This document shows, piece by piece, positions 2,935-64,000 of a stretch of 64,000 nt of DNA (within the stretch, counting starts at the first letter, position 1; each line of letters begins with the position of its first letter). Both the position numbers and the translations under genes were made by a program. The notes under the pieces were generated by a model. That model made no database searches, was not told the DNA's origin, and saw only the letters and a program-made list of their open reading frames with translations. The stretch comes from Escherichia coli (GTDB lineage: Bacteria > Pseudomonadota > Gammaproteobacteria > Enterobacterales > Enterobacteriaceae): the NCBI RefSeq assembly GCF_024298765.1, contig NZ_CP101210.1. One strand, 5' to 3'.

Positions 2935-3292
2935 GAGTCAGACAACGAAGTGAACATCAGGATGATGACACTTCTGAAGGACACACCAGGATGGTGTTTC
3001 AGGGAAAGGCTTCTGGATGAAGCGAAGAGGATGACGCAGGACGCGTTAAAGGACACCTCCAGGATGGAGAATGAGAACCGGTCAGGATGATTCGGTGGGT
3101 CAGGAAGGCCAGGAACACTTCAGGATGAAGTATCACATCGGGGTGGTGTGAGCAGGAAGCAATAGTTCAGGATGAACGATTGGCCGCAAGGCCAGAGGAA
3201 AAGTTGTCAAGGATGAGCAGGGAGCAACAAAAGTAGCCGGAATGCTGCGAAACGAACCGGGAGCACTGTGAATACAGTGCTCCCTTTTTTTA
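2935..3292 (+). ncRNA. csrB: CsrB small RNA (CsrA-sequestering)
   Basis: About 360 nt with at least nine CAGGAUG/AGGAUG motifs (2957, 2988, 3028, 3060, 3083, 3120, 3168, 3210 and others), ending in a GC-rich hairpin (3259-3284) plus a T7 run (3285-3291). Sits between syd and yqcC as in E. coli. Confidence 0.88.
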
Positions 3293-3336
3293 TTCCTGCT
3301 ATCCTTCGCGGCAGTTTTTCTTATTGAGGTTGCTTT

Positions 3337-3666
3337 ATGACCACTCATGACCGCGTTCGTCTCCAGTTGCAGGCGCTTGAAGCGTTACTGCGTGAACATC
3401 AGCACTGGCGAAACGATAAACCCCAGCCGCATCAATTTAACAGTACCCAACCGTTCTTTATGGACACCATGGAACCACTGGAGTGGTTGCAGTGGGTGCT
3501 GATCCCGCGAATGCACGATTTGTTAGATAACAACCAGCCGTTACCGGGAGCTTTTGCCGTTGCACCCTATTATGAAATGGCGCTGGCGACTGATCATCCG
3601 CAACGCGCGCTTATTCTGGCTGAGCTGGAAAAACTGGATGCTCTTTTTGCGGATGATGCGAGCTAA
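3337..3666 (+). CDS. yqcC: DUF446 family protein YqcC
   Basis: 109-aa ORF; stop overlaps the truC start (ATGA-type coupling at 3666). Confidence 0.85.
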   Translation: MTTHDRVRLQLQALEALLREHQHWRNDKPQPHQFNSTQPFFMDTMEPLEWLQWVLIPRMHDLLDNNQPLPGAFAVAPYYEMALATDHPQRALILAELEKLDALFADDAS

Positions 3667-4448
3667 TGCTGGAAATACTCTATCAGGATGAATGGCTGGT
3701 TGCGGTAAATAAACCCTCCGGCTGGCTGGTTCACCGCAGCTGGCTGGATCGCGACGAGAAAGTAGTGGTCATGCAAACCGTGCGTGACCTGATAGGCCAG
3801 CATGTGTTTACTGCTCATCGTCTGGACCGACCCACTTCTGGTGTGTTGTTGATGGGATTATCCAGCGAGGCCGGACGGCTGCTGGCACAACAGTTTGAAC
3901 AGCACCAAATCCAGAAACGTTACCATGCGATTGTGCGCGGCTGGTTGATGGAAGAAGCGGTGCTGGATTATCCACTGGTGGAAGAACTGGACAAAATCGC
4001 TGATAAATTTGCCCGCGAAGATAAAGGCCCGCAGCCAGCAGTGACGCATTATCGCGGTCTGGCGACCGTAGAAATGCCGGTAGCGACCGGACGTTACCCG
4101 ACCACGCGCTACGGCCTGGTGGAACTGGAGCCGAAAACCGGACGTAAGCACCAGCTCCGTCGCCATCTTGCCCATTTGCGCCACCCGATTATTGGCGACA
4201 GCAAACATGGTGATTTACGCCAGAATCGCAGCGGTGCTGAACATTTTGGCCTTCAGCGGTTAATGCTGCATGCCAGTCAGTTGTCATTGACGCATCCTTT
4301 TACTGGCGAGCCACTGACTATTCACGCGGGCCTGGACGACACCTGGATGCAGGCGTTATCACAATTTGGCTGGCGGGGTCTGCTTCCTGAAAATGAAAGG
4401 GTTGAGTTCAGTGCGCCATCGGGTCAGGATGGAGAGATAAGTTCCTAA
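3666..4448 (+). CDS. truC: tRNA pseudouridine(65) synthase
   Basis: 260-aa ORF with RluA-family motif HRLDRPTSG visible in translation. Confidence 0.9.
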
Positions 4449-4465
4449 TCCAGGGAGAAAACGGT

Positions 4466-4915
4466 ATGGCGGAAATTGGTATTTTTGTCGGCACTATGTA
4501 CGGAAATTCGCTGTTAGTGGCGGAAGAAGCGGAAGCAATTCTGACCGCGCAGGGCCACAAAGCAACGGTATTTGAAGATCCTGAATTAAGCGACTGGCTG
4601 CCCTATCAGGATAAGTATGTTCTGGTGGTTACGTCCACGACCGGGCAGGGCGACCTTCCTGATAGCATTGTGCCGCTCTTTCAGGGAATTAAAGATACCC
4701 TGGGCTTCCAGCCGAATCTGCGTTATGGCGTGATTGCGCTCGGCGACAGTAGTTATGTGAATTTCTGCAATGGTGGCAAACAGTTCGATGCCTTGTTGCA
4801 GGAACAGAGCGCTCAGCGGGTGGGAGAAATGCTGTTGATTGACGCCAGTGAGAACCCGGAACCGGAAACGGAATCAAATCCGTGGGTCGAACATTGGGGC
4901 ACGCTGTTGTCCTGA
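4466..4915 (+). CDS. yqcA: Flavodoxin-like protein YqcA
   Basis: 149-aa ORF; flavodoxin-like [11 protein letters not shown] motif. Confidence 0.85.
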
Positions 4916-4969
4916 TACGTTCAGCGAGCGGTAAATGCCGTTTTAGCAGTGCTGAATCGAATCTTTTCA

Positions 4970-5022
4970 GGCAAATGCCAGTAAAAACTGCTTCATAGTG
5001 CGGATTTTTACTGGCGTTTGCC
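4970..5022. repeat. Long imperfect inverted repeat (18-bp arms, 1 mismatch, about 18-nt loop) downstream of yqcA
   Basis: GGCAAATGCCAGTAAAAA ... TTTTTACTGGCGTTTGCC read directly; no strong U-tract follows. Confidence 0.5.
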
Positions 5023-5349
5023 TGGAGTCAAGCGATCCATTTCATACTCTTCTTTATTTCTTCGTTTTAACCCTTCCTTTCTTGTTCTTGTTTTCATTTC
5101 CGTGAAGTGGATTCCACCGTCCAGGGCTAATGCCAAAATCGGGCCTCATTGAACGCATTAATGTTGTGTTGTTGCACGGTGAGCCGCTATGGCGCGCTTT
5201 TTATACTGCTATTGCCAGATATAAACACGCGCCGCATTCGGCGAACGACCTATAAAAACGGCAAAAAACACCCTACGTCACCTCTGATTTCCTGGCGATG
5301 TCGCAGTCCAGAGTGAGCGTGGCTAACGCGAATTTTCAGGAGTGCAACA

Positions 5350-6702
5350 ATGAGTTCTTTAAGTCAGGCTGCGAGCAGTGTGGAAAAACGCACGAATGCT
5401 CGTTACTGGATAGTGGTGATGTTGTTTATCGTCACATCCTTCAACTACGGCGACCGCGCTACGCTCTCTATCGCCGGTTCGGAAATGGCCAAAGATATCG
5501 GCCTTGATCCTGTGGGAATGGGCTATGTGTTCTCTGCTTTCTCATGGGCTTATGTTATCGGGCAGATCCCTGGTGGTTGGTTGCTGGATCGTTTTGGTTC
5601 AAAACGCGTCTACTTCTGGTCGATCTTTATCTGGTCGATGTTTACCTTGCTGCAAGGCTTCGTCGATATCTTTAGTGGATTCGGCATTATCGTTGCCCTG
5701 TTTACGCTGCGCTTCCTGGTCGGGCTTGCTGAAGCGCCATCTTTCCCTGGCAACAGCCGCATTGTTGCGGCCTGGTTTCCGGCGCAGGAAAGGGGAACGG
5801 CGGTGTCGATTTTTAACTCCGCCCAATACTTCGCAACGGTTATCTTCGCGCCGATTATGGGCTGGTTGACTCATGAAGTGGGCTGGTCACACGTCTTCTT
5901 CTTTATGGGCGGTCTGGGCATTGTCATCAGCTTTATCTGGTTGAAAGTCATCCACGAGCCAAATCAACATCCGGGCGTAAATCAGAAAGAGCTGGAGTAC
6001 ATCGCCGCGGGTGGCGCGCTGATCAATATGGATCAGCAAAACACCAAAGTTAAAGTGCCGTTCAGCGTGAAGTGGGGGCAGATCAAACAGCTGCTCGGGT
6101 CACGGATGATGATCGGCGTTTATATCGGTCAGTACTGTATCAACGCCCTGACTTACTTTTTCATTACCTGGTTCCCGGTTTATCTGGTGCAGGCGCGCGG
6201 GATGTCGATTCTGAAAGCGGGCTTTGTGGCTTCCGTTCCGGCGGTTTGCGGTTTTATCGGCGGTGTGCTGGGTGGGATTATTTCCGACTGGCTGATGCGT
6301 CGCACGGGTTCACTGAACATTGCGCGTAAAACACCGATCGTGATGGGCATGTTGTTGTCGATGGTGATGGTGTTCTGCAACTACGTCAACGTTGAGTGGA
6401 TGATCATCGGCTTTATGGCGCTGGCCTTCTTCGGTAAGGGGATCGGTGCGCTGGGTTGGGCTGTAATGGCTGATACTGCGCCAAAAGAGATCAGCGGTCT
6501 TTCCGGTGGCCTGTTTAACATGTTTGGTAACATTTCTGGCATCGTCACGCCAATCGCAATTGGTTATATCGTTGGCACGACTGGCTCCTTTAATGGGGCG
6601 CTGATTTATGTTGGTGTTCATGCCTTAATCGCGGTACTCAGCTACCTGGTGCTGGTGGGCGATATCAAGCGTATTGAGCTGAAACCTGTCGCGGGGCAAT
6701 AA
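5350..6702 (+). CDS. gudP: MFS transporter for D-glucarate/galactarate
   Basis: 450-aa hydrophobic ORF, first gene of the gudPXD arrangement. Confidence 0.9.
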
Positions 6703-6703
6703 G

Positions 6704-8044
6704 ATGACGACACAATCCAGTCCTGTTATTACTGATATGAAAGTCATTCCGGTCGCCGGACATGACAGCATGTTGCTTAATATTGGTGGTGCACATAACG
6801 CATATTTCACCCGCAATATTGTGGTACTCACCGATAATGCCGGGCATACCGGCATTGGTGAAGCGCCGGGCGGAGAGGTGATTTATCAAACACTGGTCAA
6901 GGCTATTCCGATGGTGCTGGGCCAGGAAGTTGCGCGCCTGAATAAAGTGGTTCAGCAGGTGCATAAAGGTAATCAGGCAGCCGATTTTGATACCTTCGGC
7001 AAAGGTGCCTGGACTTTTGAATTGCGCGTTAATGCCGTGGCGGCGCTGGAAGCCGCCTTGCTTGACCTGTTAGGTCAGGCGCTGAATGTTCCGGTCTGCG
7101 AACTGTTAGGGCCAGGCAAGCAACGTGATGCTATTACCGTTCTCGGTTATCTGTTTTATATCGGTGATCGGACCAAAACCGATCTTCCTTATCTGGAAAA
7201 TACGTCGGGCAACCATGAGTGGTATCAGTTGCGGCATCAGAAAGCGATGAACAGCGAAGCCGTTGTGCGTCTGGCGGAAGCCTCACAGGATCGCTATGGC
7301 TTTAAAGATTTCAAACTTAAGGGTGGCGTGTTACCTGGCGAGCAAGAAATCGACACTGTTCGTGCATTGAAGAAACGCTTCCCTGATGCGCGGATTACCG
7401 TTGATCCCAATGGTGCCTGGCTGCTTGATGAAGCCATTTCTCTGTGCAAAGGGCTGAATGATGTCCTTACCTATGCGGAAGACCCGTGCGGCGCTGAGCA
7501 GGGTTTCTCCGGTCGTGAAGTGATGGCGGAGTTTCGACGGGCGACCGGCTTGCCCGTCGCGACCAACATGATCGCCACCAACTGGCGCGAAATGGGTCAT
7601 GCGGTGATGCTCAATGCGGTAGATATTCCACTTGCCGATCCGCACTTCTGGACGCTTTCCGGTGCAGTCCGCGTGGCGCAACTTTGCGACGACTGGGGGC
7701 TGACCTGGGGCTGCCATTCTAATAACCACTTTGATATCTCTCTGGCGATGTTTACCCATGTGGGCGCGGCGGCACCGGGTAATCCTACCGCTATCGATAC
7801 CCACTGGATTTGGCAGGAGGGCGATTGTCGCCTGACCAAAAATCCGCTGGAGATTAAAAACGGAAAAATTGCCGTTCCTGATGCGCCCGGTCTGGGCGTG
7901 GAACTGGACTGGGAGCAGGTACAAAAGGCGCATGAGGCCTATAAACGTCTGCCTGGCGGTGCGCGTAACGACGCGGGCCCGATGCAGTACCTGATCCCCG
8001 GCTGGACCTTTGACCGTAAACGTCCCGTTTTCGGCCGTCATTGA
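6704..8044 (+). CDS. gudX: Glucarate dehydratase-related protein (enolase superfamily)
   Basis: 446-aa ORF, paralogous to the next gene (shared blocks [37 protein letters not shown]). Confidence 0.9.
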
Positions 8045-26538: not shown

Positions 26539-26592
26539 TTAGCGATTATGCCCTTATGCTAAAAATTATCTCCAGTTACCAGAGATAATGAG

Positions 26593-26638
26593 AAAGGTAA
26601 CTTCCCTCTCGCGGGGGAAGTTACCTTTCTTTTTTTTT
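26593..26638 (+). terminator. Intrinsic-terminator-like hairpin in the ygcW 5' leader (candidate attenuator)
   Basis: 14-bp perfect stem (AAAGGTAACTTCCC / GGGAAGTTACCTTT), 8-nt loop, then a 9-T run at 26630-26638; ends 25 nt before the ygcW ATG. Confidence 0.6.
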
Positions 26639-63720: not shown

Positions 63721-63957
63721 ATGATTTGTCCACGTTGTGCCGATGAACAGATTGAAGTGATGGCGAAATCGCCGGTAAAAGATGTCTGGATGGTCTACCA
63801 GTGCCAGCATTGCCTCTATACCTGGCGCGATACCGAACCGCTACGCCGCACCAGCCGCGAACATTATCCCGAAGCGTTCCGCATGACGCAGAAAGATATT
63901 GATGACGCGCCGATGGTGCCGAGCATCCCGCCGCTGCTGGCGGAAGGTAAGCGCTAA
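63721..63957 (+). CDS. Small zinc-ribbon subunit of the UbiD-type decarboxylase (subunit D-like)
   Basis: 78-aa ORF with CPRC...CQHC cysteine pairs. Confidence 0.75.
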   Translation: MICPRCADEQIEVMAKSPVKDVWMVYQCQHCLYTWRDTEPLRRTSREHYPEAFRMTQKDIDDAPMVPSIPPLLAEGKR

Positions 63958-63960
63958 ATA

Positions 63961-63990
63961 AAAGGTCCGATGCCCATCGGACCTTTTATT
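63961..63990 (+). terminator. Rho-independent terminator after the decarboxylase operon
   Basis: GGTCCGATG-CC-CATCGGACC hairpin followed by TTTTATT. Confidence 0.75.
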
Positions 63991-64000
63991 AAGGTCAAAT

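Follow-up and report, generated by a model that had tools for sequence, protein, structure and literature searches.

The region considered here belongs to a stretch of 64,000 nucleotides of Escherichia coli DNA (NCBI RefSeq assembly GCF_024298765.1, contig NZ_CP101210.1), referred to below as the window. Positions 3337-8044 of the window carry yqcC, truC, yqcA, gudP and gudX, and csrB is located just upstream at 2935-3294. The flavodoxin gene yqcA is the last gene of the yqcC-truC-yqcA cluster and is separated by a spacer of 434 bp from the downstream gene gudP, which encodes a glucarate/galactarate transporter; both genes were assigned from the ORF list, the MG1655 annotation and tblastn. Within this spacer lies a long inverted repeat, whose predicted hairpin starts 50-55 nt past the yqcA stop codon and is surrounded by conserved boxes. 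The features are as follows.

4466-4915, + strand: yqcA coding sequence.
4951-4966, no strand assigned: Box1, GCTGAATCGAATCTTT (ACTGAATCGWGTTAGC in relatives), 5′ flank of the hairpin; a candidate site from the alignment that resembles the Cra/FruR motif.
4965-5027, + strand: full predicted RNA stem-loop, 27 bp with four G·U pairs, from folds and pair counts.
4970-4987, + strand: 5′ arm, GGCAAATGCCAGTAAAAA, containing the mini-palindrome GGCAAATGCC and an A5 tract; 1 of 18 positions varies among Escherichia lineages.
4988-5004, + strand: spacer of 17 nt, in which a weak 4-bp inner core (CTGC/GCGG) closes an 8-nt terminal loop (4992-4999) and A5004 is bulged.
5005-5022, + strand: 3′ arm, TTTTTACTGGCGTTTGCC, with an internalized U5 tract (5005-5009) and the end GTTTGCC.
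5027-5049, no strand assigned: Box2, GTCAAGCGATCCATTTCATACTC (GTCAAGCGACCTGTTTCACACTC in relatives), the invariant 3′ flank of the hairpin; a candidate site with the CRP-like core GNGA-N6-TCACA.
5028-5107, + strand: candidate rut region, unstructured, pyrimidine-rich and richer in C than in G, immediately 3′ of the hairpin.
5091-5117, 5124-5134, 5160-5183: Box3, Box4 and Box5.
5202-5207: TATACT, the −10 element of gudP.
5350-6702, + strand: gudP coding sequence.

Sequence reading and a repeat finder agree that the two arms are complementary at 17 of 18 positions, which confirms the inverted repeat with 18-nt arms and one mismatch that a first-pass annotation had placed in the yqcA-gudP spacer; the loop, given there as 18 nt, is in fact a spacer of 17 nt. 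The sole arm mismatch, T4976:G5016, would be a U·G wobble in + strand RNA and an A·C mismatch in − strand RNA. At lower identity (77%) the repeat extends to 35-nt arms (4953-4987 and 5005-5039). When the 64-kb window was simulated 200 times with a first-order Markov model, no simulation contained a comparable repeat, defined by 18-nt arms, no more than one mismatch and a loop of up to 30 nt; the real window contains three, the other two (26591-26630 and 63954-63993, each with at most one mismatch) having 4-nt loops.

The + strand RNA is predicted to fold into a 27-bp stem, in which 4965-4991 pairs with 5000-5027 around the bulged A5004 and the 8-nt loop, without a single mismatch in E. coli. 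The fold has an energy of −48.1 kcal/mol in a 111-nt context (z = −6.84; 0 of 200 shuffles as stable), the stem-loop energy ranges from about −41 to −48 kcal/mol across contexts, and the − strand is weaker by 8-10 kcal/mol, its fold amounting to −40 kcal/mol. The U5 tract is buried in the stem by pairing of TTTTT (5005-5009) with AAAAA (4983-4987). No U-tract is found in the 3′ flank of the full stem (TGGAGTCAAGCG); in RNA, the flank reads UGGAGUCAAG after the full stem and UGGAGUCA after the 18-bp arms. Neither a consensus terminator scan nor a second, custom scan reports a terminator at the E. coli site. The earlier view that the repeat is not a canonical terminator in E. coli is thus borne out by its weak core, the missing U-tract after the stem and the empty scans, and the remark that it has no clear U-tract applies to the sequence after the stem only, since a U5 tract is present but internalized. 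As a side observation, 17 nt at the end of the yqcA coding part (4842-4858, ACGCCAGTGAGAACCCG) are 82% complementary to the 3′-arm region (5001-5017), so that an alternative pairing is possible, probably by chance.

Conservation across E. coli, which had been proposed as a check, is nearly complete: a 93-nt core is present in 5425 of 5426 complete genomes with 95-100% identity, and copy number counts by blastn (word size 11) give a single copy per genome. The arms are invariant among the variants sampled, the commonest SNP is T4999C in the loop (the K-12 allele), and the variant C4968T converts a C-G pair to U·G. In E. coli 2014C-4135, a foreign insert directly after GTCAAG (equivalent to 5032/5033) disrupts Box2. 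The MG1655 annotation has nothing at the site, including no repeat_region, and no phage or plasmid homologues were found, three matches labelled as plasmids being mislabelled chromosomes of 4.8-4.9 Mb. A REP/BIME element, likewise an imperfect palindrome that lies between genes, past the end of one of them, and could stabilize the upstream mRNA, is dispersed in many copies, whereas this repeat has a single position in each of 5425 genomes, is rich in AU instead of GC and is unannotated as a repeat in MG1655; the suggestion of a degenerate REP-like structure is therefore abandoned. In the corresponding spacer of Enterobacter and of genomes in the C. freundii group, genuine REP-like sequences take the place of the hairpin. 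Membership in a known RNA family was also rejected, because in a search of Rfam 15 at a permissive E-value no match reached the gathering score; only sub-threshold chance matches to eukaryotic miRNA and snoRNA models were returned, and the positive control CsrB (2935-3294) was found. The searchable literature on yqcA, on gudP together with sRNA, CdaR, Cra or CRP, and on gudT contains nothing on the repeat site, and the supplements of Adams 2021 and of the SMRT-Cappable-seq paper have no yqcA or gudP entry (MG1655 positions ~2922428-2922480).

The origin of the repeat is suggested by related genomes. A scan for YqcA relatives yields 80 Enterobacteriaceae loci, in most of which yqcA is followed by gudP, and a module of fixed length between Box1 and Box2 is whole in ~21 of these loci and partial in ~8 more. 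It is carried by Escherichia, Citrobacter, Salmonella, Silvania, Kosakonia, Phytobacter, Superficieibacter and Raoultella-like taxa. Outside Escherichia, the center of the module is a GC hairpin with an A-tract before it and a U-tract after it; a second stem (GCCAGT/ACTGGC), itself trailed by (G/A)TTTTCA, often encloses this hairpin. The orthologous sites of Citrobacter, Salmonella, Superficieibacter and Raoultella-like taxa qualify as + strand terminators, in that (G/A)TTTTCA or T5-7 comes after a composite stem of −8.5 to −22 kcal/mol, and the Citrobacter site is scored as a bidirectional terminator by a terminator tool, whereas the Escherichia versions fail. Most of the other module-bearing genera also have a separate CCCTCCC/GGGAGGG hairpin after the yqcA stop codon, which is absent in Escherichia. 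Many genera have a further GC hairpin 5′ of TTTTCATTT of Box3, a third + strand terminator-like element before the gudP promoter (for example at positions 197-230, 197-218 and 212-246 of the intergenic region in L065, L046 and L048, equivalent to 5060-5099 of the window), where E. coli has a pyrimidine tract only and no hairpin.

Three differences distinguish the Escherichia form. The inner core has an energy of 0 to −4.2 kcal/mol in Escherichia versus −2.6 to −8.8 kcal/mol in other genera; for the core CUGC/GCGG before U5 it is −2.8 to −3.5 kcal/mol in E. coli and 0 in two other Escherichia lineages (L004 and L005). The TTTTCA of other genera is TTTGCC in Escherichia, where the stem is longer and the U-tract is gone, so that the GTTTGCC end of the E. 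coli 3′ arm corresponds to (G/A)TTTTCA, the U-tract of the putative ancestral terminator. Finally, complementarity of the outer arms is confined to Escherichia and close relatives. Because this outer stem is lineage-specific, RNAalifold finds no consensus structure over all 27 module sequences, and only the subset alignment A2 supports pairing; the left-arm sequence GGGCAAATGCC is kept across genera even without a complementary 3′ arm. E. albertii (L016) has neither the hairpin nor gudP. With the GC core, the U-tract and the CCCTCCC/GGGAGGG hairpin gone, and no other + strand terminator-like site detected by the scans between yqcA and gudP in E. coli, Escherichia is left without any canonical + strand terminator between the two genes and with a far longer hairpin. 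The Escherichia repeat is therefore most likely a descendant of an ordinary intrinsic terminator at the same position in other Enterobacteriaceae, as judged from these alignments.

Several comparative data favor an RNA hairpin on the yqcA-sense strand as the form in which the repeat acts. In all Escherichia variants the + strand fold is more stable than the − strand fold by 4-12 kcal/mol, and all non-Watson-Crick pairs in E. coli are G·U on the + strand; C4968T and the right-arm changes of sister lineages likewise give G·U. In an alignment of 17 rows, from taxa whose arms can be aligned, 85.5% of the cells are paired, versus 32-52% with slid partners, and at five pairs both partners have changed, columns 17/49 for instance having A-U, U-A and C-G. 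Cells with G·U outnumber those with A·C by 61 to 21 over all 17 rows and by 35 to 2 in the Escherichia rows, although the latter bias goes back to few independent events, ~7 of G·U type versus 2 of A·C type (binomial P ~0.09). Template switching can create compensatory changes in long palindromes without selection on RNA. Among six Escherichia lineages, variable positions are concentrated in the spacer (12 of 17) as compared with the arms (5 of 36; Fisher P = 8e-5). Hypervariability is also seen directly past the yqcA stop codon (4916-4949), where 23 of 34 positions differ among Escherichia lineages. Since the arms vary at about the rate of the rest of the conserved intergenic region in these six lineages (~0.15), their constraint could also operate at the DNA level.

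The sequence directly downstream of the hairpin also bears on its function. Of the 80 nt at 5028-5107, 20 are C, 8 G, 42 T and 10 A (C 25%, G 10%), and this tract has a GC skew of −0.38 to −0.41 and little predicted structure (MFE −4.4 kcal/mol, z = −0.9). Rho-dependent E. coli transcripts have precise steady-state 3′ ends right after stable stem-loops without a U-tract; C is enriched over G past such ends, which the authors linked to rut sites, and there is evidence that such loops shield the RNA from PNPase and RNase II (Dar and Sorek, 2018; PMC6061677). The repeat resembles these protective 3′ stem-loops in that a stable stem-loop just past a gene is followed by no U-rich sequence and, directly downstream, by a weakly structured tract with more C than G. 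It differs from them in its much longer stem, with 27 bp and ~−41 kcal/mol alone, in the A-tract and U-tract buried in that stem, and in that its 3′ end and Rho dependence are predictions.

Because all sequence-level features of Rho-class stem-loops are present, a model of read-through, Rho termination and trimming can be proposed. In the lineage leading to Escherichia, the GC core would have decayed, the trailing U-tract would have been lost by the change of TTTTCA to TTTGCC, and the flanks would have become complementary to give an AU-rich 27-bp stem that engulfs the U-tracts. In present-day cells, RNA polymerase may mostly read through the hairpin; Rho would then load on the C-rich, G-poor tract at 5028-5107 and terminate transcription ahead of the gudP promoter; and 3′-to-5′ exonucleases would trim the transcript to the base of the hairpin, by which the 3′ end of the mRNA would be both defined and protected. 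The hairpin would thereby help to insulate gudP from yqcA read-through and stabilize the truC-yqcA mRNA. The repeat has about an even chance of being a + strand RNA hairpin in the truC-yqcA 3′ tail that marks and protects the 3′ end of the yqcA mRNA, as a worn-down terminator linked to Rho. What the analysis shows is the structure, its conservation and strand bias, its origin from terminator-like orthologues and the base composition just downstream; from these we infer a 3′ end at the site, the involvement of Rho and stabilization of the mRNA by the hairpin. Of the three functions first suggested for the repeat, an RNA stability element for yqcA is the one favored by the G·U bias on the + strand, the terminator descent and the rut-like tract, with a mechanism that stays conjectural.

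If this proposal is correct, the repeat is most likely something routine and not an element of a new kind, and alone it raises no new question. It would add one more E. coli transcript that is ended and stabilized without a canonical terminator, and it would provide an evolutionary snapshot of an intrinsic terminator in sister genera and a U-less protective hairpin with a rut-like tract in Escherichia. The hairpin is of use for annotation of the truC-yqcA transcription unit and for engineering of the gudP promoter region: glucarate biosensors are commonly built on the gudP upstream region, and inclusion or omission of the hairpin could alter their insulation from upstream transcription.

It is also conceivable, with a rather low probability, that the repeat is still an intrinsic, Rho-independent and possibly bidirectional terminator of yqcA, at which transcription stops at the internal U5 (5005-5009) after the core hairpin or at GUUUG after the outer stem. 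The order of A5, core and U5 is that of bidirectional terminators, orthologues score as bidirectional and as + strand terminators, those of Citrobacter, Salmonella and others satisfying terminator criteria at this very position, and two Escherichia lineages (L004 and L005) have a U6 tract. Against this possibility, the GC-rich hairpin that should precede a U-tract is nearly gone in E. coli; orthologue cores reach −5.6 to −8.8 kcal/mol, whereas the core before U5 is weak throughout Escherichia and absent in L004 and L005 themselves. Only three U follow in the GTTTGCC past the outer stem, in place of the ~5 or more U in 8 nt after the stem that characterize the class and of the (G/A)UUUUCA or U5-7 of orthologues, and neither terminator scan reports the E. 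coli site. The site was accordingly rejected as a member of the intrinsic terminator class.

RNase III requires roughly two helical turns of duplex. The almost uninterrupted 27-bp double-stranded stem exceeds an intramolecular duplex of at least about 20 bp, and a processing site, whose cleavage would control yqcA mRNA decay or separate yqcA from gudP in read-through transcripts, is an alternative of small probability. At 27 bp the stem is far longer than is usual for terminators and protective hairpins, a hint that it may serve some further or other purpose, for instance as a target of RNase III, and its lengthening in Escherichia exceeds what protection from exonucleases needs. The substrates mapped by Altuvia 2018 (PMC6212723) include an intramolecular-stem type, to which the hairpin would fit; like the rnc and pnp leader hairpins, it is a near-perfect intramolecular duplex of >20 bp in an mRNA untranslated region, but unlike for those substrates, cleavage is a prediction for the yqcA-gudP hairpin. 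Moreover, the long stem is lineage-specific, and yqcA is probably weakly expressed.

A small probability, too, attaches to an element acting at the DNA level, either an operator or a phased, curved spacer in a large nucleoprotein complex that would control gudP via CdaR or via proteins that bind Box1 and Box2. As an operator it would present a pair of palindromes of GGCAAATGCC type at a distance of 43 bp, and a further one, GGCTAATGCC, lies at 5125; the left-arm motif is kept without its partner and resembles the conserved Box4 sequence GGGCTTATGCCC; A/T tracts recur every ~10-11 bp; and the spacing of the boxes is rigid across genera, with shifts only in ~10-bp steps. The right-arm palindrome, on the other hand, exists only in Escherichia, the whole module is missing in many genera with an intact gudP proximal region, and the asymmetry between G·U and A·C is meaningless for duplex DNA. 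As for CdaR, whose operator the repeat had been thought a possible candidate for, the intergenic regions of gudP and of the CdaR-regulated garP/garD have no 9-mer or longer in common on either strand, and the arm motif (GGCnnnnGCC or GGCn3-5GCC) is absent from the garP-garD region. The hairpin is missing from Enterobacter, the C. freundii group, Trabulsiella and others, in which gudP is retained along with Box3 to Box5. A CdaR operator was rejected on both grounds, the lack of a motif shared with garD and garPLRK and the lack of co-conservation with gudP.

The boxes themselves merit description. Box1 matches 8 of 10 high-information positions of the Cra/FruR motif, given as gcTGAAtCGaTTCAgc (PMC5888115), and a link of Cra to gudP or yqcA was not found in the searchable literature. 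Box2 has the form GTCAAGCGAC-N4-TTTCACAC in module-bearing loci; its core is AGCGA-N6-TCACA in relatives, with TCATA in Escherichia, and the invariant positions are the key CRP contact bases. In 29 non-Escherichia loci GNGA-N6-TCACA occupies the Box2 position, and elsewhere in the DNA retrieved it is almost absent. The invariant TCAAG 5′ of the Box2 core is a detail for which CRP does not account. Box1 and Box2 are 75-76 nt apart across genera and 66 nt apart in both Salmonella loci, and Box2 and Box3 are 71-72 nt apart, with 61 nt in L037 and L041; the remaining distances are 26 nt (Box3-Box4), 49 nt (Box4-Box5) and 29-30 nt (Box5-TATACT). The sequence between the boxes has diverged among genera though these spacings are rigid, and their length changes only by about one helical turn, which suggests a constraint of DNA phasing. 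The alignments suggest that the region upstream of gudP has a phased layout not described before, with the hairpin filling one of the spacers.

The fixed distance between Box1 and Box2 across genera is not accounted for by an RNA hairpin alone. It is possible, though improbable, that the hairpin is part of an undescribed distal control module of gudP, in which Cra-like and CRP-like boxes 75-76 bp apart stand in register with the proximal boxes and the palindrome serves as a DNA spacer, either phased and architectural or prone to cruciform formation, or has a dual role as DNA and RNA. If the dual reading were true, termination of yqcA would be coupled to carbon-source control of glucarate uptake.

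That the repeat is a functionless quasi-palindrome, either a terminator in decay, with template-switch mutation keeping its arms alike, or a REP-like or mobile repeat, is quite unlikely. The spacer is hypervariable, one Escherichia lineage (L002) has both arm variants swapped between the arms, as templated mutation would yield, and end-points of gud operon deletions lie inside the hairpin in two Citrobacter loci. In the arms, however, variability is about one fifth of that in the spacer and the post-stop segment, the stem of Escherichia has grown longer and better paired rather than decaying, and a mobile repeat would not be expected in single copy. In the two Citrobacter loci (L011 and L019, at an offset of ~120-135 in the intergenic region), the left half-hairpin is fused to 3′ gud operon sequence, which places the end-point of a gud deletion inside the hairpin and makes the site a possible deletion hotspot.

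Least probable is the terminator of a small regulatory RNA, 3′UTR-derived or independent, with Box1 (CUGAAUCG...) as its conserved 5′ part: a conserved 16-nt block ~20 nt upstream of a terminator-like hairpin in ~20 loci is an arrangement typical of 3′UTR-derived sRNAs, but there is no convincing sigma-70 promoter upstream, the E. coli form has no 3′ U-tail, Rfam has no matching family, and RIL-seq-based prediction tables list only "yqcA CDS", with an sRNA probability of ~0.0002 and no 3′UTR or IGR node. A search for an sRNA promoter of sigma-E-like or sigma-70 type upstream of Box1 gave no consistent hexamers or spacing.

Two small ORFs overlap the site, one on the + strand (5018-5152, 44 aa) and one on the − strand (5136-5008, 42 aa), and both were judged spurious on account of sequences that are not conserved across genera. 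The latter, which overlaps the 3′ arm and has a TTG start, is annotated by PGAP in one E. coli genome as a hypothetical protein (WP_001296328.1), probably spuriously. A candidate promoter on the − strand, consisting of TTGACT (5031-5026), a 16-nt spacer and AAAAAT (5009-5004), was dropped because its −10 element is not conserved in other genera; such a promoter would put the CRP-like box at −41.5.
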